Part shown: positions 1,835 to 36,992 of the stretch, in pieces
Layout: every line of letters starts with the position of its first letter
How positions within the stretch are numbered: the first letter of the stretch is position 1
DNA from: an uncultured delta proteobacterium
Lineage (GTDB): Bacteria > Desulfobacterota > Desulfobacteria > Desulfobacterales > JAFDCJ01
Assembly (NCBI GenBank): GCA_963769935.1
Contig: CAVYNY010000026.1
Span: forward strand, 1 to 38,934
Length of the DNA stretch: 38,934 nucleotides
Reading direction: 5' to 3'
The notes under the pieces: model-generated
Seen by the model: the letters and a program-made list of their open reading frames with translations, nothing else
What the model was told of the DNA's origin: nothing
The model's database searches: none
Translations under genes and position numbers: made by a program

Positions 1835-2065
1835 TCACCGCAGAGGCGCAAAGAGCGCAGAGAAAGTTTATTATTCCTTTGGCGTTGAGAAGGACGCCAA
1901 AGGAAATATTATCCGCTTTCGGCACCGCTATTGGTCCTGCAGGCGTTAACAAATTTAATTTAGGGTTTGACAGAATATGTGAAAAATTTTTCTCTCTGCG
2001 CCCTCCGCGCTCTGCGGTGAACACATAAAAAAAGAATATATGCGATCATTGCGCCTCTGTGGTGA
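1835..2065. repeat. Palindromic intergenic element (REP/MITE-like), family 1
   Basis: TCACCGCAGAGGCGCAAAGAGCGCAGAG at 1835, inverted copies at about 1990-2020 and 2041-2065, internal 12-bp hairpin TTCCTTTGGCGT/ACGCCAAAGGAA (1874-1905). A related arm occurs at 5853. Confidence 0.75.
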
Positions 2066-2109
2066 AATTTATAAATATTTTTTTGTTGTAAGAAAAGAAG
2101 GTGAACGAC

Positions 2110-4068
2110 ATGGGTAAAAATGTATCCCAAAAACTTATCGAAGCTCATCTGGTTACAGGCACCATGGTGCCGGACGAAGAAATCGGGTTGAAGATCGATC
2201 AGACGCTGACCCAGGATGCGACCGGGACCATGGTGATGCTGGAATTTGAGGCCATGCAGATTCCGCGCATCAAAACCGAACTGTCGGCGCAATACGTCGA
2301 TCACAATCTGCTGCAGACCGATTTTAAAAATGCCGATGATCACCTGTTTCTGCGCAGCGCCTGCAAAAAGTTCGGTCTCTGGTACAGCCGGCCGGGCAAC
2401 GGCGTCAGCCACCCGGTTCACATGGAGCGCTTCGGCATACCCGGCAAGACGCTGCTCGGATCCGACAGCCACACGACGGCGGCCGGTTCTCTGGGTATGT
2501 TGGCCATGGGCGCCGGCGGCCTTGAGGTTGCCATGGCGATGGCCGGTGAGCCGATTTTTATCAATATGCCAAAAATATGGGGCATCAGGCTGACCGGTGA
2601 GCTGCCGGACTGGGTCAGCGCCAAAGACGTCATTCTGGAAATGCTGCGCCGGCATGGGGTCGACGGCGGCATCGGTAAAATAATTGAATATTATGGCCCG
2701 GGCCTGAAACCATCTCAGCGCCATGGACCGCCATGTGATTGCCAATATGGGGACTGAACTGGGGGCGACGACCACGGTTTTTCCCTCCGACCATGCCGTA
2801 AAGGAATTTCTCCAAAGCCAGGGGCGGGAAGATGTCTGGACGGAAATAATGGCCGACGAGCGAGGCCGACTACGACGACCACGACGAAATTGACCTTGCC
2901 GAATCTGGAGCCATTGGTTGCGCTGCCCGGCAGTCCGGGAAATGTCGTGCCGGTGCGTGAAGTGGCCGGCCGCGAAATTTATCAAGCCTATGTCGGATCC
3001 TCGGCCAATCCGGGCTTGCGGGACTTTGCCGTTGCCGCGCTGATAGTCGACGGCCGGCAGGTGCATGATCGGGTTTCCTACGACATCAACCCGACCTCCA
3101 GGCAGATTCTGGAGAACTTGGCTTCATTGGGATATCTGGAAAAACTGATTCATTCCGGCGCCCGGATTCATCAGGCCGGATGCAATGGGTGTATCGGCAT
3201 GGGGCAGGCCCCCGCGACCGGCCGCATCAGCCTGCGAACGGTCCCCCGAAATTTTCCCGGCCGATCGGGAACCAAAGAAGACCAGGTATATCTTTGCAGC
3301 CCGGAAACCGCCGCCGCCTCGGCCCTGACCGGTGTGATTACCGATCCGCGCACGCTGGGGATGGCGTATCCACGTATTGAAGCGCCGCATCAGATTCGAA
3401 TCAATACTGAAATGCTGGTTGGACCGGCGGATGGTTTCGAAAAAATTGAACTTGAAAAAGGGCCCAACATTAAGCCGCTGCCGCCCTTTGACCCGTTGCC
3501 GCAGACTTTGCAGGGACCGGTCCTTTTAAAGATGGGCGACGGTATTTCAACCGATGAAATCATGCCGGCCGGTGCCCGGGTCCTGCCGTTTCGCAGCAAT
3601 ATCCCGGAAATCAGCAAATTTGCGTTCAGCGTCATCGATGAATCTTTTTATGACCGGGCGCTGCCTTTCCAGAAATCCGGCTGCTTTGTGGTGGGCGGCG
3701 ACAACTACGGTCAGGGATCCAGCCGCGAACATGCGGCCCTGGCTCCCAGATTTTTGGGGCTTAAAGCCGTCATTGCCAAAAGTTTTGCCCGCATTCACCG
3801 GCAGAACCTGATCAATTTCGGCATCCTGGCGCTGACATTCAACGACCCTTCCGACTGGGAGAAAATCGACCGGGACGATGAATTGGAAATACCCGACGTG
3901 CGGGCGGCCATCCAGGACGGATCACAGGTAAAAGTGATCAACAAGACCAAAAATCAAGTGTACCAAACGAAGCACTCGATGCACACCCGGCAGATTCAAA
4001 TGATACTCGAAGGCAGTTTGATCAATGTCGTCCGGAAAAAGCATAGTGGATTTAAAATTGAAGATTGA
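2110..4068 (+). CDS. Aconitase-family hydratase (short, about 650 aa type); three +1 frameshifts at about 2710, 2861 and 2900 in this sequence
   Basis: DQTLTQDATGT, DHN, GSDSHT, CNGCIG, RNFPGRSG, NYGQGSSREHAA. The missing middle (SAMDRHVIANMGTELGATTTVFPSD...ADYDDHDEIDL) is readable in the shifted frames. Confidence 0.88.
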
Positions 4069-5604: not shown

Positions 5605-5811
5605 ATGGCCAAAAAACGGTACACGATCAACACTGCCTGTCCCCAGTGCGGTTGCAGCCGGGCGCAGGTGTTGAGCGATGAGGAAATGCAGAAACAGTAT
5701 GGGCACCTTCCCAACTTCGACATGGAATGCAGCGAGTGCATGAAAAAATTCACCGCCGATATGAAAACCGCCTGTCCCGAGTGGGACAAAGAATGCCGGT
5801 TGAAGGAATAA
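5605..5811 (+). CDS. Small Cys-rich (zinc-ribbon-like) hypothetical protein, 68 aa
   Basis: Strong RBS; CPQCGC, CSEC, CPEWDKEC. Confidence 0.75.
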   Translation: MAKKRYTINTACPQCGCSRAQVLSDEEMQKQYGHLPNFDMECSECMKKFTADMKTACPEWDKECRLKE

Positions 5812-6107: not shown

Positions 6108-6794
6108 TCACCCGATGGCGCGCCAAACTTTCAGCGTTAATTCAGCGGCCATATAAATCATGAGCAGTCCGGCGAAGATATCCAATTGTTTTTGATACCT
6201 TCGCGCCAACCCGGAGGCACCCGTTCCCAGCAGCAGCAAACCGGGCAGCGTACCCAGGGCAAATGCAAAAACCAGCCTGGCGCCTCTAAAAGGCCCGCCG
6301 GCCGGAAGTGCCCGGCTGAAGGCCGCAAATGACAGCCCGCACGGCAGAAACCCCATCATTAAACCCACCAGAAATAAACTCATTCCGGCCTGATTCGATA
6401 CGGCGGATTTGATGATCTTTCCGTATCCGGGAATTTTACCGGGCGAGGCCAGGGTCATCCAGCCCGGTTCCTGCATAATGCCCAGGCGGGCCAGACCAAA
6501 TATCATCAGAAACAGCGCCGCGAGCATTGAAAACCCAACCTGAATTCGTGCTACCCAGGCCGGAAAATTTCCGCCGGTCAGAGCGGCAATTCCTGCCAAT
6601 CCGCTCCCGATGCCGCCCATGACAGCCCCGATGACCGTATAGGTAACAATCCGGCCGAAATGATAGAAAATATGCGCGGACAATCGGCCGGTCCGGCCCG
6701 GAAAGGCGATAATCAGCGGACCGCACATGCCGAGGCAATGTCCGGTTCCGAGCAGCCCGAGCATAAACATTGACAATAGTGTCAGATCGTTCAT
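6108..6794 (-). CDS. DsbD_2 / TauE-SafE-like membrane protein (type often found next to ccoGHIS)
   Basis: GHCLGMCGP, YHFGRIVTY, GFLPCG, FALGTLP; about 6 TM segments; start moved to ATG 6794. Confidence 0.88.
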   Translation of the reverse strand: MNDLTLLSMFMLGLLGTGHCLGMCGPLIIAFPGRTGRLSAHIFYHFGRIVTYTVIGAVMGGIGSGLAGIAALTGGNFPAWVARIQVGFSMLAALFLMIFGLARLGIMQEPGWMTLASPGKIPGYGKIIKSAVSNQAGMSLFLVGLMMGFLPCGLSFAAFSRALPAGGPFRGARLVFAFALGTLPGLLLLGTGASGLARRYQKQLDIFAGLLMIYMAAELTLKVWRAIG

Positions 6795-6859
6795 GCTGCA
6801 ATCACTAACATTTCGGAAAATAATTGAAAAGCAGTAAAACGGTCGTCGGTGTTTATGGT

Positions 6860-6888
6860 TTGACAAGGAGATTAGATTTCATTAGAAA
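6860..6888 (+). promoter_or_regulatory. Possible sigma70 promoter of the nosL-like operon
   Basis: TTGACA-17 nt-TAGAAA (the -10 box is weak). Confidence 0.35.
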
Positions 6889-6996
6889 CAACCTTTGATT
6901 CATTTGAGTCGGTGGCCGGTCTGCTGCCGGATGGCGGCATCGATAGTTCCCTGAACCGCATGGAATTTCAGGACAACAATTGTTAAGGAGGATGAT

Positions 6997-7584
6997 GTGC
7001 AAACCAATGGTGATCGAAAGGCGCGGGGTCTGTTTGGATACGATTTCTTCAAGCGCTTTATCCTGGTGGCGGGGTGCATTGGAGCTGTGCTCTTCGGACC
7101 GGCGATATTGACCGGGGAGGCCGGCTCGGGTGCGAAACCCGGCTTAAAACCCCTGGATGAACACGGCCGCATGCAAATCAGCGATCAGGACCGGTGCCCG
7201 GTCTGCGCCATGAAGGTGAACGCCCATAAAAAGTTTTCCAGCGCCATTCAGCTTACCAACGGCGACACCTTTTATTTCTGCGGCACCGGCTGCATGATCC
7301 GCTCCTGGCTGCATCCGGAAATATTTTTAAATGCAGCCAAGTCGGAATTGAAAAAAAGCGTGGTGCAGGACTATTTCAGCGGTGCCCAGGTCGACGGCCT
7401 GGCCGTTTACTGGGTGGCCGGCTCCGATGTGGTGGGACCCATGGGACCGGCGTTGGTACCCATTTTAGATGAAGGCCAGGTGGAGATCTTTAAACATCGA
7501 CACGGCGGCAAGGCTGCATTTCGCCTCGGCGAAATGACCGATGAAAAATGGCAGCAGCTGACCGGTAAAAAGGCCGCCCCTTAA
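6997..7584 (+). CDS. nosL: NosL-family metal(Cu)-binding protein
   Basis: N-terminal hydrophobic segment; CPVCAM, FCGTGCM, VQDY, YWVAGSDVVGPMG, F..RHGG; AAGGAGG RBS, GTG start. Confidence 0.82.
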   Translation: MQTNGDRKARGLFGYDFFKRFILVAGCIGAVLFGPAILTGEAGSGAKPGLKPLDEHGRMQISDQDRCPVCAMKVNAHKKFSSAIQLTNGDTFYFCGTGCMIRSWLHPEIFLNAAKSELKKSVVQDYFSGAQVDGLAVYWVAGSDVVGPMGPALVPILDEGQVEIFKHRHGGKAAFRLGEMTDEKWQQLTGKKAAP

Positions 7585-7587
7585 AAA

Positions 7588-7896
7588 ATGAAACAATCCC
7601 CGGCAAAGGCCGATCGGTTGGACGCCTGTAATGCGATCGGCCTGATCATCCTGATTCTGGCGGCTCTGGTCGCGCTGGTTGTTTTCGTCGATGCTGCGTA
7701 TCGGAGCAACCCTTCCGGCGATCAGAGCGCACAATTGGTGCGGGTTTTCGGATTCGACCGGCTGTCCCTGGTACCCTCCGGCCGGACGTTGCGAAGCCCC
7801 GACATGCCGAAGTCGACCGTTGAATGGTGCTATGATCCGTACCTTACAGGCATCCCACCGGACGCGGCGGATTTAATTCTGAAAGCCGCGGATTGA
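7588..7896 (+). CDS. Hypothetical single-TM protein
   Basis: 3 nt after the nosL stop, one hydrophobic helix, 9 nt before the next gene. Confidence 0.7.
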   Translation: MKQSPAKADRLDACNAIGLIILILAALVALVVFVDAAYRSNPSGDQSAQLVRVFGFDRLSLVPSGRTLRSPDMPKSTVEWCYDPYLTGIPPDAADLILKAAD

Positions 7897-7905
7897 AAAC
7901 GAAAT

Positions 7906-9060
7906 ATGAATCTGCGTTCATCCTATCCATTGCTGGCCTGGGCGGTAAGAGATATTCTCAGACAGCCGCTTGAAGCCGTTGTCCTCTTTCTATCGCTGGC
8001 TTCACTGGCAGCAGTGCTGGGCACCGTGCTGCTGTTGAGTCAGTCACTTTCCCACACCGCCCAACGAATTTTGAACCACGCCCCGGCGCTGGTTATCCGC
8101 CGGGTCGGTACCGGCGGCTGGACGCCCATGCCGGCTCAGGAATCCATCCGGTTGGCCAAATCGGTTGCCGGGGTGATCGGCGCCAGATCAAGGATCTGGG
8201 GTACGGTAAACGGTCCGGCCGGACCCGTCACCGTGTTCGGAATTGATCAGGCCGTTGAGCTCGGCGGACTGCCGGACAATATCCCGCTTCCGTCCCCGGG
8301 TCAGGCGATTTTAGGTCCCGGGGTTTTGGCGGCTGCCGGGACGGATGCCGTCAAATTAAGCGGCACGAAATCCCTGGTTGTCAAAGTAGCGGCGGTCCTA
8401 AATTCCCAAACGAGCATGGTCGCCCATGATCTGGTCCTGCTTGATGCAGAAGATGCCAGACACATTTTAGGCATTGCGCCGGAATACGCCAGCGACGTTG
8501 CCGTGGATGTATTTTACGAAAACGAGGCCGATGCTATCCTGCCGGATCTGGCTGCGGTGTATCCCTGGCCGGTGCGCCTGACCACCCGTCGGGAGGCAGC
8601 CGGCATTTATTCCGCGGGGCTGGCCCGTCGCAGCGGTCTGGTGTGTATGACCCTGATTCCGGCTTTGCTCGCACTTGCTTTTATTGTTATCGGCGCCGGC
8701 AGAAATTATAGTGCGCGGCGGTACGAGGCCGGACTTTACAAAGCCTTCGGCTGGACAACCCCGGACATATTTCGCTTGCAGCTGCTTAAAGCATTGCTCA
8801 GCGGGGTGCCGGCAGTCACCGGCGGACTGTTTCTGGCTTACGGCCTTGTCATGTGGCCCGGCGTGTCGTGGCCCGGATTGTTGCTGCTGGGGTGGGAGCA
8901 ACATCCGCCGCTGCTGTATCTTGACCCTTCCGGCGCCGTGTCGGTGCTCCTTGAGATCGCCTTGCTTGTATTTTTGCCGTATCTGGCGGCAACGCTCTGG
9001 CCGGTCTTGAAAGCTGCCGCGGCCGACCCGCAGGATTTTCTCGAAAGGGATTTCATTTAA
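7906..9060 (+). CDS. ABC transporter permease, FtsX/MacB/LolCE type
   Basis: 1 TM, large periplasmic domain, then 3 TM; RRYEAGLYKAFGW matches the FtsX-type motif. Confidence 0.85.
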   Translation: MNLRSSYPLLAWAVRDILRQPLEAVVLFLSLASLAAVLGTVLLLSQSLSHTAQRILNHAPALVIRRVGTGGWTPMPAQESIRLAKSVAGVIGARSRIWGTVNGPAGPVTVFGIDQAVELGGLPDNIPLPSPGQAILGPGVLAAAGTDAVKLSGTKSLVVKVAAVLNSQTSMVAHDLVLLDAEDARHILGIAPEYASDVAVDVFYENEADAILPDLAAVYPWPVRLTTRREAAGIYSAGLARRSGLVCMTLIPALLALAFIVIGAGRNYSARRYEAGLYKAFGWTTPDIFRLQLLKALLSGVPAVTGGLFLAYGLVMWPGVSWPGLLLLGWEQHPPLLYLDPSGAVSVLLEIALLVFLPYLAATLWPVLKAAAADPQDFLERDFI

Positions 9061-9062
9061 AT

Positions 9063-9749
9063 ATGGACTCCGCGCTTGTCTGTCAGGATATCGGTTTACT
9101 GCGCCGCGCATGGGACGGATCACAGCGTGTGGTTCTAAAAAACGTCAATGCCGTTTTCAGGTCCGGTCAGGCGGCAATCATTTCAGGATTGACCGGCGCC
9201 GGCAAAAGCACGCTGCTGAACATTCTGGCCGGTCTTTTGCGTCCTTCACAGGGCCGGGTCCTGGCAGACAATCTGCCCGTGTCCCGCTGGAACGCGGCCC
9301 ATCGGGACCGCTGGCGCAGAAAAGTGGGGATTGTCTTTCAGCACCCGCATCTTTTAAATCAACTCACCGTTATGGAAAACGTCATTCTTCCGCTCATTCC
9401 CCGCATCGGTTCTATGGCCCGGCTGCGCCGGCACGGTTATGAAGCCCTCGAAAAATCAGGCATTTCACATCTGGCCGGGCAAACTGCACACACGCTTTCA
9501 GGCGGTGAGCAGCAAAGAGTCGCCATCGCCCGGGCCATAGCAGCTCAACCCGAAATCCTGATCGCAGACGAACCGACCGCCCATCAGGATGAAGCCGGAG
9601 CCGCCGCGATCATCCGCCTGCTCACCGAATGGAAGCGTCCGGGGGCGATCGCGATTGTCGCCGCGCATGATGCGCGATTGCTGGGATACGGGCGATTTGC
9701 CGACAGACACTTTGAACTGGCGGACGGTTGTCTGAAGGAACTGAAATGA
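9063..9749 (+). CDS. ABC transporter ATP-binding protein (LolD/MacB-like)
   Basis: GLTGAGKST, LSGGEQQRVAIARA, ILIADEPT, H-loop. Confidence 0.93.
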   Translation: MDSALVCQDIGLLRRAWDGSQRVVLKNVNAVFRSGQAAIISGLTGAGKSTLLNILAGLLRPSQGRVLADNLPVSRWNAAHRDRWRRKVGIVFQHPHLLNQLTVMENVILPLIPRIGSMARLRRHGYEALEKSGISHLAGQTAHTLSGGEQQRVAIARAIAAQPEILIADEPTAHQDEAGAAAIIRLLTEWKRPGAIAIVAAHDARLLGYGRFADRHFELADGCLKELK

Positions 9750-10780
9750 TCCGGCATCCTTTGCTGATAGCCGTTTTCATGGGAGATTTGATCAGCCTTT
9801 TGTTATTGCTGGCGGCGGCCAAAACCGCACTCAAGACGGTCACCGAATGGGCGCCGCAGTCAGCCGCGGGGCGGCAGATACAACTCGAACGTGCGGTGGA
9901 GACCGGCGAATTAACCGCTAAATTTGCACTGGCAGCCTTTTTTGCGTCCACCCTGGTTCTTCTCGTCGCGGTCACCAACGTGTTGCCGGCCGTCATCCCG
10001 GGTGCCATGTGCGGGACCGGTGTGCTTCAGGCAACCCATGGCCTGGGCGGCCCGGCGGTGTTTTTGCGGCTGCTTGTACTGGGGGTCATCTATATCTGGC
10101 TGGTCCTTGAAAAGCTCAACAACCGGCAGCCGGACAGGCCGCTGACAATCAGCAACGCCCGTGTTTTGCTGCTGATGCTGCCGCTTCATCTGCTGGCCGT
10201 ATCAACCACCATGCAGGCCTTTATGCGTATCGACACGCACCAGCCCGTCGACTGCTGTGCGGTGGTTTACGATCAGTTCCCCAATCTTGCCGTCGCCCGC
10301 CAGACGGCCGGGCTTCCGAATACCCTATGGCTGCAGATTTTTTGGATTTTAACCATTCTGCTGGTGATCAGCGGCTGGCAAGCCTGGCGGACCAAGCCGG
10401 CCGGCCGGGTCAAGACCTCGGGATGGATGGCCTTGCTTACGCTGTTATGGGTGCCGTCGGCCGCCGTCGTCCTGGTAAGGGTCTTTGCCGCTTACTACTA
10501 TCAGGTTCTCCACCATCACTGCCCCTGGTGCCTGTTTTTGTCTGATCACAAATTCGTCGGGGTTCCATTATTTTTCAGCCTCGCAGTTGTCGTCCTGGAA
10601 GGACCGGCGGCCTTTATAACTGCCAAATTAGCCGTTAAATATCCTCAATTCGTTCAAACGGCCGCCCGGCGCTCAAAAATTGCGGGTTTGAGAATCCTGC
10701 TGGCAGCCGGCGCATTTATTGGTATGGTGAGCCTGCCGGCGGTTTTCTGGCGATTACAGTTCGGGGTGTGGATTCATTAA
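9746..10780 (+). CDS. Polytopic membrane protein with Cys/His clusters, function unknown
   Basis: ATGA overlap with the ABC ATPase; about 8 TM; PGAMCGTG, DCC, HHHCPWC. Confidence 0.8.
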   Translation: MIRHPLLIAVFMGDLISLLLLLAAAKTALKTVTEWAPQSAAGRQIQLERAVETGELTAKFALAAFFASTLVLLVAVTNVLPAVIPGAMCGTGVLQATHGLGGPAVFLRLLVLGVIYIWLVLEKLNNRQPDRPLTISNARVLLLMLPLHLLAVSTTMQAFMRIDTHQPVDCCAVVYDQFPNLAVARQTAGLPNTLWLQIFWILTILLVISGWQAWRTKPAGRVKTSGWMALLTLLWVPSAAVVLVRVFAAYYYQVLHHHCPWCLFLSDHKFVGVPLFFSLAVVVLEGPAAFITAKLAVKYPQFVQTAARRSKIAGLRILLAAGAFIGMVSLPAVFWRLQFGVWIH

Positions 10781-11070
10781 AAGCAGGCTGACGTTCAAGT
10801 TAATTCTAAACCAGTTGGAATTTTCATGGTTTTCATCAAGTAATTAAATTATCTAAACTAAATCATATGCTTATATAAGTAAAAGTCCCCCTGCGCTGCC
10901 CTTAAACTCCTTGACGGCAATGACGAATACATGCTAAGGCTTGCCTTGCAAAATCTTCGCCGATCGGCGAATTACGGACGTTTTTGAAGCATTTATCAGC
11001 TGCACGCCGGCGGTTTGCATGCGATAGGCCGCCCCAGGCTTCAAATTGGCAAGAGGATAGGTTTTATCAC

Positions 11071-12012
11071 GTGTCTGATACCTCACTAGCGGATCAATTT
11101 AAAGGCGTTTCACGATTGAAGCTTTTCCTGGCGTTGTCCAGAACGCCCCATGGTTTGCTGGACATGTGTACCCCCGCTTTTGGCGCCCTTTTATGGCTTG
11201 GACATTTTCCTGCTTTTCATGTGGTCGCTATCGGTCTTGTTACGACTTTTGCCGGCTATACCGCCGTTTATGCCTTGAACGATATCGTCGATTATAAGGT
11301 TGATAAAGAAAAGGCGGTCAAGGTAGGTCTGTCGAATGCAGGTAGTGATCTGGATGGGGTCTTCGTGCGGCATCCCATGGCCCAGGGATTGTTGACTATC
11401 AAAGAAGGAATTTGCTGGGCGATGTCCTGGGCTTTTTTGGCACTGATCGGCGCCTTTATCCTCAATCCGGTTTGTGTATTTATTTTTGCCGGGGGCTGCA
11501 CGCTGGAGGCCGCTTATTGCCTGTTATGGCGCGTGAGCCCGTTTCGTACCTTTGTCAGCGGCGCCGTAAAAACCTCCGGCGCCATTGCGGCGGTCTTCGC
11601 GGTTGATCCGGAGCCCTCGGGCTGGTATTTAATATGTTTGTTTTTAATGCTGTTTTTTTGGGAAATCGGCGGGCAGAATATTCCCAACGATTGGTCTGAT
11701 GCCGCCGAGGACCGACAGCTGAATGCCAAAACCATTCCGATCCAATGGGGGCTTCAGATTGCCAACGACATCATTCTCGGCACCCTTATTTTAACCTTGG
11801 GGCTGAGCGCCATCGTTTTTTATTTTCCCCGGGCAGCTTACGCAATCACTTTTATTATTCTGTCCCTGGCGGTGGGCGGTTATCTGCTGCTGTTGCCCGC
11901 GCTGAAACTGTCCAAAACCCGTGAACGTTCCCATGCCATGGTGCTGTTCAACAAAGCCAGTTATTTCCCGCTGGCGTTGCTGCTGATCGTTTTGATCAAA
12001 ATTTTGTTTTAG
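11071..12012 (+). CDS. UbiA-superfamily prenyltransferase
   Basis: Asp-rich motifs NDIVDYKVD and NDWSDAAED, multiple TMs; probable GTG start at 11071. Confidence 0.88.
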   Translation: MSDTSLADQFKGVSRLKLFLALSRTPHGLLDMCTPAFGALLWLGHFPAFHVVAIGLVTTFAGYTAVYALNDIVDYKVDKEKAVKVGLSNAGSDLDGVFVRHPMAQGLLTIKEGICWAMSWAFLALIGAFILNPVCVFIFAGGCTLEAAYCLLWRVSPFRTFVSGAVKTSGAIAAVFAVDPEPSGWYLICLFLMLFFWEIGGQNIPNDWSDAAEDRQLNAKTIPIQWGLQIANDIILGTLILTLGLSAIVFYFPRAAYAITFIILSLAVGGYLLLLPALKLSKTRERSHAMVLFNKASYFPLALLLIVLIKILF

Positions 12013-12037
12013 CGCCGGGAAATAGAAGGAGTCTTTC

Positions 12038-12751
12038 ATGAAAGAATTTGATGCCGATGAGTTGGCCGAGTTCAACGGTGAAAACGGCAATCCAATTTAC
12101 GTTGCCTACGACGGCAAAGTTTACGATGTCAGCGAAAGCAAACTCTGGCGCAAGGGGCAGCATATGAAACGTCATCGCTCCGGCAACGAGCTGACCGGCG
12201 ACATGCAGGCCGCACCCCACGAAAGCGATGTTCTGGAACGATATCCCCAGGTCGGCCTATTCAAAAAGACCGCTGTCGAGGAGCCGGCCCTTCCGCAGCC
12301 GCTCGCCCGGCTCATCAGCCGCTATCCTTTTCTGCGGCGTCATCCGCATCCGATGACGGTTCATTTTCCCATCGTTTTTGCCTTCTCAACGACAATTTTT
12401 AACATCTTTTACCTGGTTAGCGGTATTAAATCGTTTGAGATGACCGCGCTGCATTGTCTGGCCGGCGGCATAATATTTACGGTTGTGGGCATCACCACCG
12501 GCTTTTACACCTGGTGGATGAACTACATGGCCAAACCGCTGAAAGCCGTCAAAATAAAAATTCCCCTCGCCGCCGCGATGCTTGTCACCGAGATCATCAT
12601 ATTTATCTGGCGTATCATGAAACCGGACATCCTGGATTCCGTGCATCTCGGCAGTGTTATTTATTTTCTGCTGGTGCTGGCCCTGGTGCCGATGATAACG
12701 GTTATCGGCTGGTATGGGGCTTCCATGACATTTCCGATTGAGAAAGGATAA
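12038..12751 (+). CDS. Cytochrome b5-like heme/steroid-binding domain fused to DUF2231 membrane domain
   Basis: ELAEFNGENGNPIYVAYDGKVYDVS...H..G.ELT...APH, followed by HPMTVHFPI and 4 TMs; AAGGAG RBS. Confidence 0.85.
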   Translation: MKEFDADELAEFNGENGNPIYVAYDGKVYDVSESKLWRKGQHMKRHRSGNELTGDMQAAPHESDVLERYPQVGLFKKTAVEEPALPQPLARLISRYPFLRRHPHPMTVHFPIVFAFSTTIFNIFYLVSGIKSFEMTALHCLAGGIIFTVVGITTGFYTWWMNYMAKPLKAVKIKIPLAAAMLVTEIIIFIWRIMKPDILDSVHLGSVIYFLLVLALVPMITVIGWYGASMTFPIEKG

Positions 12752-16823: not shown

Positions 16824-18475
16824 CTACAAATTTTCCTTCGACAGCTTGCGGTCTTTCATGGTATAAAGCACCCGCTGCCATTTAATTTCCCTGGCCTGGG
16901 GTTCTTCTTCCACCGGCATGGTAAGCCCGGGAATCGGAAGACGCACCTGGGATGGCTCGGCCGGCACAACCTCGCTGGTTTCCAATTGAACCGGACTTCC
17001 CCACAAATACTCAATTCCCAGCATGGTATTGGCGATGAATTCTTTTACAAGCGGCTTGCCTTCAAATACGTGCACCAGATAAAGATTGCCGTTGTTGGCT
17101 TTTTCCTGATTGATCTGAATATGCGGCGGGTGGTAGAGCGTGCCGAGCAGCATCCGGCGATATTTCTCGGCGCTGCGGCTTTTGACGAAATATTCCCACA
17201 CGCCTCTATTCTGGTTCAACCGCCGGCCGGCTACAAACAGTTTGTATTTGTTGACGAAATCCTGATCCACAAAGGTGTTGATGAACATGAAATCATTGAA
17301 GTTATCACGCAGGTTGAATAAAAAATCAAGGCCCTGTCCGGTGTGCACATCGAACTGGTCCCGCTGTCTGGCATCCCGGAGCCGTCTGAATTTAATTGAA
17401 TATTTGCCCTTGCCGGCCAACTCTTCAATGTAGTGAAACAATCGCATGCCTAAAGCATAAGGATTTAGGCCCACCCGCGGCATGGACGTTACGCCCGCAT
17501 GGGTGCGGGCGAAGTCGACCTCGTGTCCCTCGATGCGGTCATCTTCAGAAAAAGCTTTTCATGCCAGTAACTGGCCCAGCCTTCGTTCATAATTTTGGTT
17601 CGGATCTGCGGCTGGAAAAACAAGGACGTTTTGCGGACCACCTCAATGACCGGCTTTATCCAGCTGTTTTTTTCTTTTCGCAAAAATTCGGAGTGCTCCA
17701 GCAGATATTGCATCAGGTCGAGTTTTTGAGCCGGTTTTTTTCCCAAACTCTTTTTGAATATGGCATCAAATTCGGGGTATTTTCTGAACACTTCCGCGAA
17801 AAAGGCTTTTTCTCCAAGCTCTTTGCTTTCTTTTATATTCTGATTGAATCTTTCTATTTCTTTGACGTATTCATTTATTTTTAACTTCTTATTCGATTGC
17901 AGGAAAACATCAAAATAGTAATCGAGCATCTTCGAGCTGTTGGTTTTGGGGGGACGATTGAGTTGCGAGAGCTCATAATGGTATCCGACCAGGTTGTCAA
18001 TGCCGCGTGAAAATTCGATGATGTAGTCCAGCCATCGGCCTTTTTCCGATCTGAGCTTGGCCATCATGCGCTTATCTGAAAGGGCCTGGCCGGTGAAATC
18101 ATAATCCCATGTGTGCCGAAAGTATAAATTGTTCTGGAAAAAATCAATGTGAGCCAGAACGTGATAGAAAATCATGACATTCATCCAGTCCGGATTGTTG
18201 TCATTGTAAAAAGATATCGCCGGCCGGGTGTTGATGACGGTTTCGTAAGGATTGCTCGGATAAAGTTCATACCGGCCTTTTTCTTTCAAAACCTCCACAT
18301 CGTGGACCCAGTAGTCATAAAGGGTTGGAATCATAAGCTTGGGAGTAAGCTCCAGCAGATCGCGGTTGGAAACAATATATTCCAGGGATTCATCCTGAAA
18401 ACTCAGACCGGCGTCCCGGGCTCTCTGCTTGCACCCTTCCATGATTTTTTTGGTATGTTGGTCGATTAATTCCAT
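16824..18475 (-). CDS. spoVR: SpoVR/YcgB family protein; one-base deletion at about 17545 in this sequence
   Basis: YETVINTRP, HVLAHIDFFQNN, PQIRTKIMNEGWASYWH, continuing in another frame as DDRIEGHEVDFARTHAGVTSMPRVGLNPYALG. Confidence 0.9.
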
Positions 18476-25575: not shown

Positions 25576-26373
25576 ATGAACGCGATTGTTGTCAGCGACC
25601 TGCATATCGGTTCCCGCTACTTTAAATTCGGCCCATTTGAGCGCTTTCTTAAAGCACTGCCGGCAGATCATGAACTGATCATGAACGGGGACATCATCGA
25701 TTCGCCATACGTGCACATGGATTCTTCGGATCAAAGAATCCTTGATCTGATCGAAGATATTTCCTTTCGGCAGAAAGTGGTTTGGATACGGGGCAATCAT
25801 GACAATGGGTATGTGCCGCAAAATTTTGGAAATACCATTTTTAAATCTTCCCATAGCATCGGCCGCCGACTTTTAATTACCCACGGCGACGGCTTCGATG
25901 ACATCATGCGCCGCAGCCGCCTGTTTATAAAAGCATTCCATCTGATGCACAATTTGAGGGTCAAATTGGGCGCCAAGCCGGTGCACGTGGCGGAATACGC
26001 CAAGAAATGGAAATCTTTTTACCGCGTGCTGCGAAAAAATGTCGCCTTAAATGCCATAAACTGTGCTGCAGAAAGGGGTTTTGAAGCGGTTACCTGCGGC
26101 CATACCCACTATCCGGAAGATCTTGAGTTAAATGGCGTCCGATACATTAATACGGGTGCCTGGACCGAGTTTCCCGCCTATTATCTTCATACAACTGCCG
26201 ATGGAATGGTTTTAAAACGGGTGGCTCCATCCAGTGAGTCTTATCGCTTAGAACGCACACGATCCAATCGGACTCAACCGGCACCGGCAATCCAATTTGC
26301 GCATGCCAACCATCCTCCTGTGGACTGCAACACGCTGAAAAACCCCAAATCTCAAGCACCAAATTACAAATAA
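25576..26373 (+). CDS. Calcineurin-like metallophosphoesterase, LpxH (UDP-2,3-diacylglucosamine diphosphatase)-like
   Basis: SDLH, GDIID, GNHD, HGD, GHTH, YINTGAW; GGAG RBS. Confidence 0.88.
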   Translation: MNAIVVSDLHIGSRYFKFGPFERFLKALPADHELIMNGDIIDSPYVHMDSSDQRILDLIEDISFRQKVVWIRGNHDNGYVPQNFGNTIFKSSHSIGRRLLITHGDGFDDIMRRSRLFIKAFHLMHNLRVKLGAKPVHVAEYAKKWKSFYRVLRKNVALNAINCAAERGFEAVTCGHTHYPEDLELNGVRYINTGAWTEFPAYYLHTTADGMVLKRVAPSSESYRLERTRSNRTQPAPAIQFAHANHPPVDCNTLKNPKSQAPNYK

Positions 26374-26555
26374 ATCTCAAATCACAATATTTAATGACCC
26401 AAACATTCGAAACCGTTTGAACCGATCAATTTGCAGAGCTTAACCCACAGGTCATGCAGCGTTTGGGTAAGCAGGATGACAGATTATTTGTTTTGAATTT
26501 TGAATTTAGGTCATTGAGATTTATTTGGGATTTGGTTTTTGGTGCTTGGAATTTT
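26338..26555. repeat. Family-2 long inverted repeat, second copy, with about 85-nt spacer
   Basis: CAAGCACCAAATTACAAATAAATCTCAA...AATGACCCAAAC / ...TTTAGGTCATTGAGATTTATTTGGGATTTGGTTTTTGGTGCTTGGAATTTT; between convergent genes. Confidence 0.8.
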
Positions 26556-26611
26556 AATGCATTAAGCAGCAATTGCATTGGAATCATTCGACAATCATTT
26601 ATAAATAGCGG

Positions 26612-29163
26612 CTATTGGCCCCTGGTATTCTTGCGCACCAGCATCAGGGTATTGCCGGTGACGCTCAAACTGCTCAGCAGCATGGCCGTCACCGCTACCA
26701 GGGGATTCAGCAGGCCGCTCATGGCGATGGGGATGCTGACGGCATTGTAGATGCAGGTAAAGGCAAGGTTCTGATAGATTTTTTTGTTTACCTGTTTGGC
26801 AAAATCCAAAAATTCGATTATTTGGGAAGGCCTACCCCGCATCAGGGTGATGTCGGCGGCTTCTTTGCTAAGCTGTCCGCCGGAATGGACGGCAATGGAT
26901 AGATCCGCCTGAACCAGCGCCGGCGCATCATTAATCCCGTCGCCCACCATGGCTACACACTGTCCCTGCTGCTGCAAATCGCGAATAAAGTCTGATTTAT
27001 CCTGGGGCAGCCGGCCGCCAAGGGCCTGTTGGATTCCGATGCGGGCGGCAACGGCGCTGGTGGTTTGGGATCCATCGCCGGACACCAGCGCCAGGTGAAA
27101 TCCGCGGTCGCGCAAATTTTTTATGGTCGCCGCGGCATCCGGGCGCAAGCTGTCGCCAAAGACAAAAATCGCAGCCAGCCGGCCGTCAATTCCCAGATAC
27201 ACCAAAGAATGCTCGGCCGACCCGTCGATCTCCTTTGCGATTGGCCAGGGCATTTGGGGCTTGCAATTCCTTGATCAGAAACTCGGCCGAGCCGATTTTT
27301 AGGGTTTGCCCGTTAAAATTTGCCCTGAATTCCCTTTTCATTCGTCCCGGATGCTTTGTCATAGGGACCGGCTGAACTCTTTTATGTTCTCGCCTGCCTG
27401 AGAATTTCAACGGCGATGAAATGATCGCAATCATTTTCCAGGCCGGCGGCCAAGGCCAGGGCTTCATCTTCGCTGAGCGACTCATCGCAAATGATATTTG
27501 ATCAGATTCCACTGCCCCACGGTGACGGTGCCGGTTTTATCGAATACAAAGGCCGTGGCTCTCTCAGCCTGTTCGAAGGCTTGAAAATCTCGCACCAGGA
27601 GACCCTTTTTGCCGGCGATGGAGATGCCGGCCACCCGGGCCAGCGGTATGGCGATGCCCAGGGCACACGGACAGGATATAACCAGAACCGTGACGGCCCG
27701 CAGCACTGCCGCTTCCAGCGGAATTCCCGCCAGCAGGCAGACCAACGCCGTGCCGGCCGCCAGGGCCATGATGATCGGGACGAACCATTGTAAAATAACA
27801 TCCGTTTTGCCTTCCAGCGGCGTTTTGGTCATCAGGGTCTTTTCGATGATGGCGATCATCTGACCCAGGGTTGAGCTGCGCGCCGACCTTTTGCGCGCTT
27901 ACGATAAACGATCCCCTTATGACCCGGGTGCCGCTGCGCAACAGTATCGCCCGGTTTCTTTTTAAGCGGCAGCGGCTCGCCGGTTAGGGAAGATTCATCC
28001 ACTGAACCGGTGCCGCTTAAAATTCTGCCGTCGGCGGGAATGATTTCATTTTCATCGATTCGAAATATATCGTTTTCAGAGAGATGGTCGGCGCTCACAT
28101 AGCGTCCGGTCGGGATATTCAGCCGTGCAGATTCGTACTTTGGAGGGTCTTAAAGCGAAAAAGCTTTCCAGGCTTTGCAGCACTTTACCTTTGGCGCTGC
28201 GTTCCAGCGTTTTGCCGAGCAGCACAAGGGTAATCAGCATGGCGGCGGTATCGTAATAAATGTGAATGCTGCCGGCAAAAAGGTTTACCGTGCTGTAAAT
28301 ATAGGCGCTTAAGGCCCCTATGGTAATCAGGGTTTCCATGCTGAAGGCGGCATTGGTAAGGCCGGACCATGCTTTTTTAAATAACTCGAAACCGCCGTAG
28401 ACGACCACAATGCTTGCCATGATAAAAGCCGGCCAGGAGAGCTTATTAATCGTATCCCGACTGAATCCGGGTAAAAAACCCCGAATAAAGGGCATAGGAG
28501 AGCATCATGATGTTCATCGTCAGAAAGGCTGAAATGGCGAACCGCATAAATTCCCTGCGTCTTTCGGCGGCATCCTGAGATTCATCGGGTTCCGCCGCCC
28601 GGTAGCCGAGTTTTTTAACGGCCTCGATAATTCGATCGGGTGAGGTTTGAACGGGGTTAAAGGAAATATGAAGGCGATCGGTTGAAAAATTGCAGGTGGC
28701 ATCGATGACACCGGGCGTTCTGTTAAGACTTTCATCGATCAGCCAGGCGCATGCCGGACACCACATATTGCTGACCTTCAGATCCAGGCTCAACGCCGCA
28801 TTTGTCGATAGCGACGGCCCGGCGGCGGATTCAAGCCTTCCATCCGTTTTCGCCGGGATTTCCTTCGAATCGACGTGAAAATCATCTTCTGCTAAATCGG
28901 CTTCCGTTCGAGGAATAATGCCGGCTTTCCGGCACTGCTTGAATAGATCCGATTCCCGGAATTTAGCGGGGTCGCCCGAATCGGTGGCTTCCATCAGGAT
29001 AGCTAAACACCTGACGGCATCCGATGCAGCAGAATCGGTAGGTTGATCCGGAAAATTTCGCTTCGAACCGGCCGGCACGCAGCGAAAGACCGCATAAATC
29101 GCACGTGTTTAAAATACGGCGGGAGATATCTAAATTATTGTGGTTTATCTTACTGCTGGACAT
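26612..29163 (-). CDS. ccoI: P1B-type Cu-translocating ATPase of CcoI/FixI type, broken into 7 or more frames by single-base insertions
   Basis: CDLC...FCCIGC N-domain, HMA MWCPACAWLI, DESSLTGE, ISCPCALG, DKTGT, GDGINDAPAL, YN and MLLSS, all in order across the fragments. Confidence 0.88.
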
Positions 29164-29227: not shown

Positions 29228-29743
29228 TCAACGGACTCCCAGGGATTTGACGAAGGCGATGACGTGCCAGCGATCGTCGATCGTGATGGTCGTATCCAGA
29301 GCCGGCTGGCGTCTGCCGGGGATACCATAACTGATGGTTTTAAATAATTCGCCGTCCGGTTTGGACTGGACCTGGGCGTTGCGCAGATCGGTGGGCAGCG
29401 GCTGAAAGCTCTGGCCGACCGTGCCTTCGCCGTCATAGTCGTAGCCATGGCATTGGGCACAAAATGTCAGATATACGGCTTTGCCCCGGGTGATGACAAA
29501 TGGTTCGGAGGCCTTTATCGGGGAAATCAGATCGGCACCGGGCGTTATCCGGTAAAGGGCTTCTCCGCCGTCGACCGGAACCAGGCCTGTTTCCATAATC
29601 TGCTCCGGCGCTTCCATAGGCCTGACGCCCGGGGTTTCCCGCATACGGCCGTACCGGAAATTATTGTCATAATACATCAACGCTTCATACGCCGCGTAAA
29701 GAACCACGCCGACTACGATGAAAAAGATTATTATTTTCTTCAT
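29228..29743 (-). CDS. actE: Membrane-anchored monoheme cytochrome c, ActE-like
   Basis: N-terminal TM, RGKAVYLTFCAQCHG, PTDL, DGELFKTISYG, DRWHVIAFVKSL; inside the ACIII cluster. Confidence 0.72.
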   Translation of the reverse strand: MKKIIIFFIVVGVVLYAAYEALMYYDNNFRYGRMRETPGVRPMEAPEQIMETGLVPVDGGEALYRITPGADLISPIKASEPFVITRGKAVYLTFCAQCHGYDYDGEGTVGQSFQPLPTDLRNAQVQSKPDGELFKTISYGIPGRRQPALDTTITIDDRWHVIAFVKSLGVR

Positions 29744-30028
29744 TTATTCAACACCTTGATACGGCAGCGGTTTTAGATGCAGGGGATTTTCCTCTTGACC
29801 CTGCTGTCCCCTGACATGTTGACCCGCAGGCAGCGGATGATACGGTTCCTGTATCGAGTAGATGGATTCGCCGGGAACATCCGCAATCGGCCGGTAATCC
29901 CAATCCGGTTGGCCAAGATTGCCGATAACGTTATAGGCCAGCCATCCTTTAAACACCACCCATCCCAACATCAGCAGGATGAGGAGCCATGTTTTGACTG
30001 CGGAAGATGTATGCTCCAAATGATTCAT
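29744..30028 (-). CDS. Hypothetical single-TM protein
   Basis: Abuts both neighbours (0-1 nt), one TM, WDYRPIADVPGES tail. Confidence 0.72.
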   Translation of the reverse strand: MNHLEHTSSAVKTWLLILLMLGWVVFKGWLAYNVIGNLGQPDWDYRPIADVPGESIYSIQEPYHPLPAGQHVRGQQGQEENPLHLKPLPYQGVE

Positions 30029-30303
30029 CAGTATTTCACCTTCAAAATACCAATTAAGAGAATATACGCCAGAACCCAGATCACGGTTCCCGCGATAGTC
30101 AAGTACAAAAATATCGGAAACGGGGCGTTGCGGCCTTCGATTCCACCCGTATAGCGCTCGATGATGCGGGTTTCGCGCTCCGCTGAATCCCTGCGATTGA
30201 TATGATAGTAGCCCAGGGCAAGGATGAACAGCGCGATAAATGCCACTGCCGGGAACAAATACATGACAAAGTGCTGCAGGCCCAGAATATTGAAATATCT
30301 CAT
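30028..30303 (-). CDS. Two-TM protein resembling the CcoP/FixP N-terminal anchor, no heme motif
   Basis: RYTGGIEGRNAPFPIFLYLTIAGTVIWVLAY resembles the CcoP H.wDGIeE.dNPlP...lf..TI.f...Y pattern; AAGGA RBS. Confidence 0.65.
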   Translation of the reverse strand: MRYFNILGLQHFVMYLFPAVAFIALFILALGYYHINRRDSAERETRIIERYTGGIEGRNAPFPIFLYLTIAGTVIWVLAYILLIGILKVKY

Positions 30304-30394
30304 ATTTTATATCCTTTTGCCCCTTACTCCAAATTTATCCGCCAGGCGAATCGGGACCACGCCCTTCCGAATGCGAGCAGCCGGTCGATGGATT

Positions 30395-30658
30395 TTATTT
30401 GACTACCTTCAGCAAGGCAAACACAATGACTGCCACGGAGCACAGCAGACAGATGCAAACCAGTGAAAACAGGGCGATTGTCTCGATGCGGGCAAACCGG
30501 GATGCTTTCACCGGCTCCGTTTGCAAATCATTTTCCAGCGGAATGAACCGCGCCCGCTGCTGGTCATTGAATTGCCCCTTATTCAGCGCCCATAAAAACA
30601 CCACGATACTTATAACAAAACCGGACGCCATGTATGCGATAAAATAGGGATAATACAT
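30395..30658 (-). CDS. ccoS: cbb3-type oxidase assembly protein CcoS/FixS with extra C-terminal TM
   Basis: VFLWALNKGQFNDQQRARFIPLEND. Confidence 0.8.
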   Translation of the reverse strand: MYYPYFIAYMASGFVISIVVFLWALNKGQFNDQQRARFIPLENDLQTEPVKASRFARIETIALFSLVCICLLCSVAVIVFALLKVVK

Positions 30659-30674
30659 GTTTGAAATCCTGTAT

Positions 30675-30773
30675 AAATGTCTAAAATGAGTTAAAATGAG
30701 CTAAGATGTTAAAAAGAAGGATCAGAACCCATAATTTTAGGCACTTTAGGCATTTTCAAATTTTAGGCATTTT
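30675..30773. repeat. Inverted arrays of 9-10-mers between ccoO and ccoS
   Basis: AAATGTCTAA AATGAGTTAA AATGAGCTAA ... ATTTTAGGC ACTTTAGGC ... ATTTTAGGCATTT. Confidence 0.65.
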
Positions 30774-30777
30774 CTTT

Positions 30778-31710
30778 TCATGGTTCCCAGGCCGAGTCGA
30801 TGCCGCGCGGCTCGGTGTTGGCGTCACTCTGGTTGATAAAGTAAACCGCCACGTAGTTGCCGACCTCCCAGATTTTTTGCGACTCCAGATCGCGTTTGAA
30901 ATAAGGCATGGCGGTTCCGGTAATGCCGTTCATGATTTGATAGTAGAGAATCCCGCCGGAAATTTCTCTGCCTTTTAAAATCGTAAAATTTAACGGCGGC
31001 GGATAGAGATAGGGCTGGGCCGGGCCCATCCCGTCTCCAACCGGGCCATGGCAGCCGATGCAAAAAAACTGGTAGATTTTGTGTCCTCGTTGAAGACCGG
31101 CATCCGTCGTCGGATACGGATCGGGAACTTCGTGCCAGCCTTGGGGAATATGATCCGCCAGCCACTTGACATTGGCCTCGGGCCCGCCTTCAAAACCTTT
31201 AATGGATTCCTTTTTCCAGTAACGCTGCCGCTCCATGCGGCGGTCTGCATCTTTAAGTCCCAGACTTTGTATATACTGAGCCAGTTTATGAATCCGGTCC
31301 ATGCCCAACCATTTAAAGGGCGGCATGATCGAAGCCGGCCGCGTGAACCGCGGATTGATGAAATGGGCGACGTGCCAATCGTCCGGATGCTCGCCGCCTT
31401 CCTGGGAAAGATCAACGCCCGTTCGCTGCGAGCCCAGTTCGATGGGTTCATCCGCGAGGTAGTCCCCGGACTGGGCGATACGCTCCGCTCCGTGGCCCCA
31501 ATCGAAGGCGCGAATCGCTTGGCTGTGGCAGTAAACACAGCCGTTTTGCAGATAAATCAGGCGGCCTTCCGCCTCTATCTTGGTTCGTTCGCGAAATATG
31601 TCGGAGGGTGTCGTCGTACGCTTGGCATAGGGCCAGTAGACCATGGTCAGGGCGATTGCAGCCAAAAGGGCCAGAATGCCGACAATAATAACAGTCGGGG
31701 TCATTTTCAT
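30778..31710 (-). CDS. ccoO: cbb3-type oxidase subunit II with fused second cytochrome c domain
   Basis: EGRLIYLQNGCVYCHSQ, GSQRTGVDL, WHVAHFINPR, SIMP; second heme CIGCH with GTAMP; ATGA overlap with ccoN. Confidence 0.88.
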   Translation of the reverse strand: MKMTPTVIIVGILALLAAIALTMVYWPYAKRTTTPSDIFRERTKIEAEGRLIYLQNGCVYCHSQAIRAFDWGHGAERIAQSGDYLADEPIELGSQRTGVDLSQEGGEHPDDWHVAHFINPRFTRPASIMPPFKWLGMDRIHKLAQYIQSLGLKDADRRMERQRYWKKESIKGFEGGPEANVKWLADHIPQGWHEVPDPYPTTDAGLQRGHKIYQFFCIGCHGPVGDGMGPAQPYLYPPPLNFTILKGREISGGILYYQIMNGITGTAMPYFKRDLESQKIWEVGNYVAVYFINQSDANTEPRGIDSAWEP

Positions 31711-33080: not shown

Positions 33081-33134
33081 AATTAGAACTCCTCTTAACG
33101 CGTTTAGTTATTTGTTATAACCAATAACTCCAAG

Positions 33135-33650
33135 TTAGCTGTGACACGCCAGCCAGCAATCCACATTGGCATTTTTCTTTCTATGGCATTGGATGCACAT
33201 CCCCATCCGCCAATCCTTATACGGCAGTCGCTGCAAATCTTGAACCTCCCCGTGACATTCCCGGCAGGCGATCTGGGCGTTGATATGTCTTTGATGATTG
33301 AACAGCACATGCTCGGGTATATAATTCACCTTGACCCAGGGAGTGGGGGTTTGGGTGTTGAAGTACTTGTGCTCCTTTTGGATTTGCGGGTGTCCTTTAA
33401 TTATATAATTGTGGCAGTACAGACACTTTTCCACCGGCGGGATGCCCGGGAAATTTGAGTAGGCGACATAGGGGTGGCAGAACTGGCATTGGATCTGCTT
33501 GATGCCGGCGTGCACATTATGGCTGAAGGGAATCGGCTGTTCCGGGCCGATGCCGCTCAGGGGCGACTGCCAGTAAATATAGACAAAGGCTGCCACAGCC
33601 AATATGGCGATCAGCGTCAGGAGAACAGCTACATTATTTTTTTTCAACAT
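33135..33650 (-). CDS. actA: Membrane-anchored pentaheme cytochrome c, ACIII ActA-like
   Basis: PEQPIPFSH..H, CQFCH, CLYCH, FNHQRH, CRECH, MGMCIQCH, CWLACH; ATG 33650 with AAGGA RBS. Confidence 0.85.
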   Translation of the reverse strand: MLKKNNVAVLLTLIAILAVAAFVYIYWQSPLSGIGPEQPIPFSHNVHAGIKQIQCQFCHPYVAYSNFPGIPPVEKCLYCHNYIIKGHPQIQKEHKYFNTQTPTPWVKVNYIPEHVLFNHQRHINAQIACRECHGEVQDLQRLPYKDWRMGMCIQCHRKKNANVDCWLACHS

Positions 33651-33696
33651 CCTATTCCTTGTCAATACAGCGGATTTTATTCTCTATTCTTTTAGG

Positions 33697-34912: not shown

Positions 34913-34928
34913 GGCGGTGGACTTTCCT

Positions 34929-36741: not shown

Positions 36742-36749
36742 GTTTTTAA

Positions 36750-36986: not shown

Positions 36987-36992
36987 CAAAAG

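Follow-up and report, generated by a model that had tools for sequence, protein, structure and literature searches.

A conserved NosL, type VII ABC and eight-helix membrane protein module, probably copper-handling, in an uncultured deltaproteobacterium and its relatives

The window analysed here is the whole of contig CAVYNY010000026.1 (38,934 nucleotides (nt); C26 of an 8.0-Mb, 96.7% complete genome) from an uncultured deltaproteobacterium of the Desulfobacterales. Within it, a NosL-family protein is encoded together with a small membrane protein (SM), the permease and ATPase of an ATP-binding cassette (ABC) system and an eight-helix membrane protein (MEM), divergently from a DsbD_2 gene. We regard this module as real, conserved, uncharacterised and probably copper-handling. 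With a probability of roughly one half, the operon would be a general-purpose periplasmic Cu(I) relay to which DsbD_2 supplies reductant. Cu(I) would enter the periplasm, for example via a CopA/CcoI-type ATPase, be carried by NosL and be exchanged at a Cys/Met/His thiolate site on the outer face of MEM. By analogy with NosDFY, an ATP-driven shape change of the type VII ABC would load or unload the tightly bound Cu(I), with no copper channel, and DsbD_2 or TlpA/CcdA neighbours would hold the thiols reduced. The clients would vary by genome and may include heme-copper oxidases, multicopper oxidases and sometimes NosZ.

The original prediction of five tightly coupled genes was reproduced. On the plus strand lie nosL (6997-7584, 195 residues), SM (7588-7896, a single-helix protein of 102 residues assigned by position and a weak profile match), the LolC/MacB/FtsX-like type VII permease (7906-9060), the FtsE/LolD-type ATPase (9063-9749) and MEM (9746-10780, 344 residues, with an ATG start within a frame opening at 9728), all co-oriented open reading frames (ORFs) with gaps of 3, 9, 2 and -4 nt. 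The motifs CPVCAM, CGTGCM, GPMG, PGAMC, CC and HHHCPWC were all found in the operon proteins. The DsbD_2-family membrane protein occupies 6108-6794 on the minus strand, and the common upstream region of about 200 bp proposed for the two directions agrees with its likely ATG at 6794, 202 nt from the nosL start. Independent short-read contigs showed 0 differences from the operon over 6150-8291 and 2 over 8334-10771. RNA libraries X8 and X9 yielded contigs for parts of this operon as it occurs in close relatives, from which neither transcription nor a single transcript follows.

MEM is represented by 592 sequences at 50% clustering (E<=0.001), and a pattern scan based on a 19-sequence subfamily alignment yielded at least 583 confirmed GTDB stretches, of 599. 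Desulfobacterota-type groups, Nitrospirota, Methylococcaceae and a few further groups supply the best 80 GTDB loci. We analysed 113 loci, comprising the window, 32 from a sample of the phylum and 80 from the GTDB scan (two duplicates were removed). In the 85 loci with at least 3.5 kb upstream of MEM, the ATPase and permease precede it in 76, SM in 71 and NosL in 65. Scored with profiles built from these same loci, the gene order is far above chance (76/85 loci). Its nine exceptions are four loci in one family, two with MEM beside DsbD_2 only and three that are rearranged or interrupted. The split family (four genomes) has kept both halves, with NosL-SM-permease-ATPase elsewhere in the genome and MEM among multicopper-oxidase and cusBA genes. 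The module is testable, since cultured organisms, Pelotalea chapellei (L078) and Desulfoferrobacter suflitae (P0102), carry it. A divergent module (NosL-like protein, permease, ATPase, MEM and a second small Cys protein) was also seen at L144:7638-11715, beside genes that look cobalamin-related.

The window NosL matches Pfam PF05573 at 63.1 bits (cut-off 24) and the solved P. stutzeri NosL 7osf at E 3.4e-9, and the operon copy is the sole NosL gene in the genome. According to passages of PMC8457098, Zn in S. denitrificans NosL is bound by C59, C88 and D92 and Cu by M64 and M145, with C62 bridging; they also report an attomolar hold on Cu(I) by P. denitrificans NosL and the occurrence of some homologues outside nos clusters. 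Window residues C67, C70, M72, C95, C99 and M149 align with C59, C62, M64, C88, D92 and M145, Cys replacing Asp92. Among 131 homologues of the operon NosL, C67 and C70 are kept in all, M72 in 129 and M149 in 128, and positions 95 and 99 are invariably C or D. By this alignment the metal site of the window NosL is intact at all six Zn/Cu ligand positions, and the protein would bind structural Zn and one Cu(I) as cargo. Its N-terminus is a hydrophobic export signal. In a simple pattern test, made with no signal-peptide predictor, a lipobox was not conserved (5 of 128 aligned homologues keep C27, and 7 of 131 show a lipobox-like pattern).

Two paralogue classes of NosL could be separated. Nearly all NosL genes directly 5' of SM (63/66) fall into one class, in which both variable Zn positions are Asp and the alignment rows printed show the GPMG methionine; the window NosL has GPMG but Cys at those positions. 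The other class mostly lacks the GPMG methionine motif. A further context for NosL outside nos clusters was observed in L135, L137 and L148, where the gene lies directly 3' of CusBA-type pumps with no MEM within the stretch fetched. An orphan NosL in Sulfurospirillum is mentioned, with no context in the part consulted, in a proteomics paper (PMC6242987).

Eight helices were assigned to MEM from hydropathy and an AlphaFold2 model (predicted local distance difference test (pLDDT) 96). C89, C170, C171, C259 and C262 are invariant in 142 MEM sequences, and M88 and H257 are present in at least 90%. Conservation of Cys, His and Met, on which the idea of a metal-delivery system had been staked, was therefore found both in the NosL ligands of the 131 homologues and in the MEM cysteines of the 142 sequences. 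M88, C89, C170, C171, H257, H258, C259 and C262 are all found in the loops that follow helices 2, 4 and 6. These Cys loops carry on average 0.2, 1.6 and 0.7 lysines plus arginines, against 4.4, 3.2, 3.0 and 5.1 in the odd loops, and from this positive-inside count they are predicted to face the periplasm. Two proteins from Myxococcales metagenome-assembled genomes (MAGs), P0260 (493 residues) and P0267 (537 residues), consist of an exported N-terminal NosL domain followed by MEM. Because NosL is fused at the MEM N-terminus, an N-out topology and a functional tie to NosL are suggested. Both proteins are annotated just as NosL and have NECPWC where HHCPWC stands in MEM. No longer fused forms (633-2000 residues) were found, which is weak evidence.

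MEM belongs to no named family. A PDB sequence search with its profile returned nothing meaningful, matches in the ESM Atlas were 'hypothetical protein' clusters only, and plasmid searches were empty; a 74% homologue is annotated in a Desulfobacterales MAG. Fold searches were made with the whole model and with residues 132-302. There was no Foldseek match at E<=0.001, and what came back were generic helical bundles, the best being Z 13.1 (root-mean-square deviation 3.3, 138 residues aligned) and Z 8.3 (4.1, 93 aligned). The fold matches listed did not include VKOR or DsbB, which leaves them possible. An internal two-fold repeat was considered, and none was detected.

The surroundings of the module are copper-rich, as would be expected of the metal system first proposed: CusA-type pumps, multicopper oxidases, SCO, CopA and nosDFY all occur near module loci. 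Across the 71 loci of at least 12 kb, we counted a CusA-type pump at 21, TlpA at 16, a multicopper oxidase at 13, DsbD_2 at 8, YtkA at 7, and SCO and FtrD-like genes at 4 each. The CusA count is made up of 17 proteins with at least 45% identity to a verified CusA homologue and 4 longer ones at 39-41%, among which the single protein scanned exceeded the CusA/CzcA cut-off; one multidrug resistance-nodulation-division (RND) protein was excluded. By our own estimate, taking roughly one cusA every 3-4 Mb and fewer than a third of genomes with the gene, the chance expectation for a CusA neighbour is below 1%. In L091 and L068 the module has CopA and DsbD_2 as immediate neighbours. A small exported protein with repeated CxCGxxCxC and a metallothionein-like composition recurs beside the module (L017:8849-9370, L092:10192-10704); the single copy scanned had no Pfam match.

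Upstream of nosL, a candidate sigma-70 promoter (TTGACA-N17-TAGAAA, 6860-6888, plus strand) was recognised by eye, its spacing and hexamers (TTGACA-17-TA[G/C]AAA) being kept in five loci of the genus; a consensus scan did not list it. No conserved regulator was found among 100 flanking proteins scanned, of 158 listed. Both promoter and neighbours bear on a possible role in copper defence, in which the module would collect excess periplasmic or membrane Cu(I) and feed it to CusA-type pumps or multicopper oxidases. Such an adjunct would suit the pumps (21/71) and multicopper oxidases (13/71) within about 9 kb, the position of MEM among multicopper-oxidase and cusBA genes in the four genomes of one family, and the CusA-type gene in four (G005, G059, G081 and G171, the last at L021) of the six MEM genomes with neither an oxidase nor clear nosZ. 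It nevertheless seems unlikely to us. The window's genome has no CusA-type gene (best RND matches 22-25% identity), the module also adjoins the biogenesis genes nosDFY, SCO and DsbD_2, and CueR-type induction goes with a long promoter spacer, unlike the conserved 17-nt spacer here.

The DsbD_2 gene matches Pfam PF13386 at 127 bits (cut-off 24.9), with its motifs (HCLGMCG and PCG) conserved, and its product is likely a thiol-reductant conduit. The divergent arrangement is conserved in the window's subfamily, with eight related loci having the gene at the same place; one locus of the genus has a thioredoxin-like gene instead, and two loci are cut short. DsbD_2 also adjoins MEM in two further loci that lack the ABC and NosL (L014, L016). 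This last arrangement would be natural if the module were a thiol-redox or Cu(II)-reducing unit, with the five outer cysteines of MEM relaying electrons from DsbD_2, CcdA or TlpA, for instance to reduce Cu(II) for NosL. The same could be said of TlpA in 16 of the 71 loci, of the MEM CxxC that precedes a membrane helix, of the faint VKOR Pfam match of the window MEM (E 0.008), and of the missing ccoG match in the window's genome, CcoG being a known cupric reductase according to the part of PMC7558416 consulted. We hold this to be quite unlikely, as VKOR matches at E<=0.1 occur in only 5 of 142 MEM members (best E 6e-4, all below cut-off) and the odd count of Cys, alongside conserved Met and His, would suit a metal site better. 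A VKOR/DsbB ancestry of MEM was rejected, with hhalign probabilities of 1.1% and 6.6% against 15 VKOR domains.

The permease matches the FtsX Pfam model at 31.8 bits (cut-off 25.5) and has a large outer domain. Its helices at residues 25-43, 244-262, 297-315 and 344-362, assigned by hydropathy, give a 1+3 layout, and the family profile matches the structures of YtrF, LolF, LolC, MacB and LolE at E 2e-6 to 3e-3. The ATPase, a Pfam ABC_tran protein, has intact Walker and signature motifs (GLTGAGKST, LSGGEQQ, IADEP). By topology and profile matches, then, the ABC is of type VII, and the view that it is not of the NosFY type proved correct, the permease being FtsX-type. Mechanotransmission on an outer partner would be expected of a member of this family. 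Matches to the named systems fall below their NCBIfam cut-offs (ATPase: LolD 151 vs 308, FtsE 166 vs 265; a permease homologue on the lolCE model: 34 vs 362).

SM has no Pfam or NCBIfam match, and a PDB sequence search with its profile gave nothing meaningful. The window copy is a divergent member that matches the profile of the positional family weakly (8.8 bits); its orthologues in the genus share 39-57% identity. SM may be an accessory subunit of the ABC. Complex prediction for permease, SM and MEM scored 0.56, against 0.00 for the best of three controls, in one of which the permease was replaced. Runs gave 0.56, 0.00 and 0.57, with contact agreement of at least 76% and partner pLDDT of at least 72. 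Of 157 solved complexes 116 attain the mark applied, as do 2 of 215 mismatches; at scores of 0.60 or less, only 18 of the 157 but both mismatches do so, and passes in that range are more often wrong unless the complex was likely beforehand. These predictions weakly support a contact between MEM and the permease that depends on the permease.

Several known systems share parts with the module. Like NosDFY-NosL (PDB 7osf-7osj, 7znq; NosL 7og7), it has a NosL with the Zn and Cu ligand set encoded with an ABC. In contrast to that system, the window's genome lacks nosZ and nosD, the ABC is type VII and not NosFY, NosL has no conserved lipobox, and the candidate acceptor is an eight-helix Cys protein and not the NosD beta-helix. 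A nos cluster and the module stand side by side in L025 and L026. We infer that the module is analogous, not homologous, to NosDFY-L, whose ABC drives Cu(I) transfer from NosL to the enzyme with ATP, as stated in the part of PMC13685413 consulted.

With the type VII ABCs (LolCDE/LolDF, MacB, FtsEX, YtrF) the module shares the four-helix permease and the FtsE/LolD-like ATPase. It differs from LolCDE, MacAB and FtsEX proper in falling far below the LolCE, LolD, FtsE and MacB cut-offs and in having one permease gene. LolA, MacA/TolC and EnvC are the partners of the Lol, MacB and FtsEX systems; those of the module ABC are NosL, SM and MEM. The module has DsbD_2 in common with the ccoGHIS/DsbD_2 genes of cbb3 oxidases, and a CopA/CcoI-type ATPase and a C-family oxidase are nearby in the window's genome; unlike ccoGHIS, it is not tied to an oxidase across genomes, as far as draft genomes allow absences to be called. 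A review passage on clade III nosZ clusters proposes that a MacB-type ABC may act like NosDFY in copper-enzyme maturation (PMC13685413). Compared by description, that passage names no NosL, SM or MEM, and it concerns nosZ clusters, unlike the nosZ-free genome of the window. No description of the module was found in full-text searches of the literature, subscription papers and supplements lying outside reach, and a text-term search of PMC8267372 and PMC3707914 gave no match.

The nearest parts list is that of C. jejuni FetABCDEF, in which, according to the part of PMC10783030 consulted, iron import is supported by an eight-helix Cys-bearing protein, thioredoxins and an ABC whose substrate is unknown. 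By analogy, the module might support metal uptake or serve a metal other than copper (Zn, Fe), and the FtrD-like genes in 4 of the 71 loci and the NosL class mostly devoid of the GPMG methionine would fit such a role. The likeness stops at the parts list, FetA being compared by description: the module has NosL, one permease in place of two and a copper context. MEM gave no FtrD/DUF2318 or YHS match among the 25 Pfam families listed for 142 members, the recurrent neighbours are copper genes, and the ABC-adjacent NosL retains soft Cu(I) ligands. A role in uptake or with another metal is thus very doubtful.

Independence from nosZ was profiled across genomes. The window was said to hold no nosZ, nosD, nosR or nosY, and among the 41 ORFs scanned NosL is indeed the sole nos family; no genome-wide search was made for nosR. 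In the window's genome, tblastn with two NosZ, one NosD and two CcoG queries gave no match, and NosY gave one weak 134-residue match. The NosZ propeller model PF18764 found nothing there and, as a positive control, matched 10 of 201 genomes across the phylum. These 201 genomes include 33 with MEM and 40 with NosL. NosL is present in 30 of the 33 MEM genomes and in 10 of the 168 others. Clear nosZ, defined as E<=7e-29 (5 of the 10 matches; the 5 weak ones, one of them in MEM genome G059, were set aside), is present in 3/33 and 2/168, respectively, so that the claimed independence from nosZ held up. Two of the three module genomes with nosZ have the module directly after nosD-F-L-Y (L025, L026), and the third assembly is fragmented. 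Heme-copper oxidases (E<1e-60, which may include some nitric oxide reductases) occur in 24/33 MEM genomes and 44/168 others, and CusA-type genes in 17/33 and 40/168, lower bounds because only three candidates were scored per genome. Since related genomes are not independent, these co-occurrences are patterns, not tests.

The window's genome encodes one C-family and two A-family oxidases, a longer, weaker COX1-family match and one multicopper-oxidase-like gene. No PCuAC was found in it, and its SCO matches, at 24.5 and 22.8 bits, are marginal and fall on TlpA-like genes. Given its three heme-copper oxidase genes, its single multicopper-oxidase-like gene and the lack of any match for a CusA-type pump, the module would here more probably supply cuproenzymes than export copper. 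The original prediction had gone further, to loading of the CuB site in the oxidase that lies 20 kb away, whose cluster was noted to lack ccoG and ccoH; the absence of ccoG was borne out genome-wide with the two CcoG queries, and no genome-wide ccoH search was made. A dedicated CuB maturation factor for the C-family oxidase linked to alternative complex III (ACIII), replacing ccoG/ccoH, would agree with the phylum-level enrichment of oxidases (24/33 vs 44/168), with the attachment to the module in the window of a DsbD_2 gene that in L145 and L146 lies in a ccoN-ccoG cluster, and with G194, where, as in the window, some 21 kb separate the module from an ACIII-ccoNO-copA cluster, a shared ubiA-like gene (48% identity) lying between them. 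The genus does not bear this out. Among its 23 draft genomes (77-97% complete), 7 have the module and ccoN, 4 the module only, 8 ccoN only and 4 neither, so that window-type ccoN accompanies 7 of 11 genomes with MEM and 8 of 12 without. Six of the 33 module genomes have neither a heme-copper oxidase (E<1e-60) nor clear nosZ, and three more have nosZ only. Five module genomes carry ccoG-like genes, so the module is no simple substitute for ccoG, and scoring only eight candidates per genome gave no sign of mutual exclusion between the two. Dedicated CuB service is not supported as the explanation, and we rate it very unlikely. A looser link of the module to oxygen respiration remains, in the phylum-level enrichment and in the island shared with G194.

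The oxidase cluster itself showed further features. At 29228-38915, ActB, C, D and a multiheme cytochrome are joined to C-family ccoN-ccoO(diheme)-ccoS-cytochrome c-copA, in an order kept in G194. A copA/ccoI pseudogene in six or seven pieces (26612-29103) was rejected on the evidence of independent contigs, which do not have the extra bases. In the ActF-like gene there is one frameshift (33697-34948), and single extra bases at eight places are absent from the independent contigs. The breaks in copA/ccoI and ActF are on this ground assembly errors, and the genes are probably intact.

Returning to the general-purpose Cu(I) relay, a number of observations weigh against it. Within about 9 kb, 44 of the 71 long loci have no gene for CusA, multicopper oxidase, SCO or YtkA, the remaining flanking genes are unrelated housekeeping genes, and the CusA-type pump at about one third of the long loci fits detoxification as well. 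The 80 GTDB loci are the best matches to one subfamily and not a random draw, and many oxidase-bearing relatives lack the module. P0260 and P0267 are sisters in the tree and count as one fusion event. The window permease is without conserved Cys, His or Met and has no conserved metal ligands, which makes a metal channel through it unlikely. In G169 and G199 the neighbour of MEM is DsbD_2, no ABC adjoins it and no NosL was found; MEM may therefore work without NosL and the ABC. Finally, the direction of transfer and the client are putative.

A broader form of the relay can be put forward tentatively, at odds clearly worse than even: the module would be a second, independently evolved ATP-driven copper-loading machine, its type VII ABC acting on MEM to strip or load NosL, and would serve as a general periplasmic copper hub. 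In sulfate reducers, Nitrospirota and methanotrophs this hub would supply oxidases, multicopper oxidases and N2O reductase. Type VII ABCs are so far known to move lipids, lipoproteins and drugs; metal trafficking would join these jobs, and two new membrane-protein families would be defined. If the relay is correct, many NosL genes without nosZ would gain a role. In the sampled phylum, 30 of the 40 NosL genomes carry the module and only 5 have clear nosZ; on that view, NosL would be of little use as an indicator of N2O reduction in the sampled groups. A copper supply route would also be suggested to oxygen-reducing enzymes in anaerobes or microaerophiles without ccoG and PCuAC, as the window's genome appears to be.

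Other features of the window were recorded in passing. Genes for a UbiA-family prenyltransferase and a cytochrome-b5/DUF2231 protein follow the operon on its 3' side (10984-12751), likewise in four loci of the genus. On the other side, 5605-5811 encodes a 68-residue protein with CPQC, CSEC and two more Cys, possibly a small metal-binding protein; it has no Pfam match, is 79% identical in a relative of the genus and is covered by contigs from the RNA libraries. The aconitase ORF is confined to the C-terminal 60% of its model, and SpoVR is broken into two ORFs (1960-4068 and 16824-18475 for these genes), probably through frameshift errors. At the intergenic positions 26340-26560 and 30680-30770, many unrelated contigs pile up and run off, which suggests short repeated elements.

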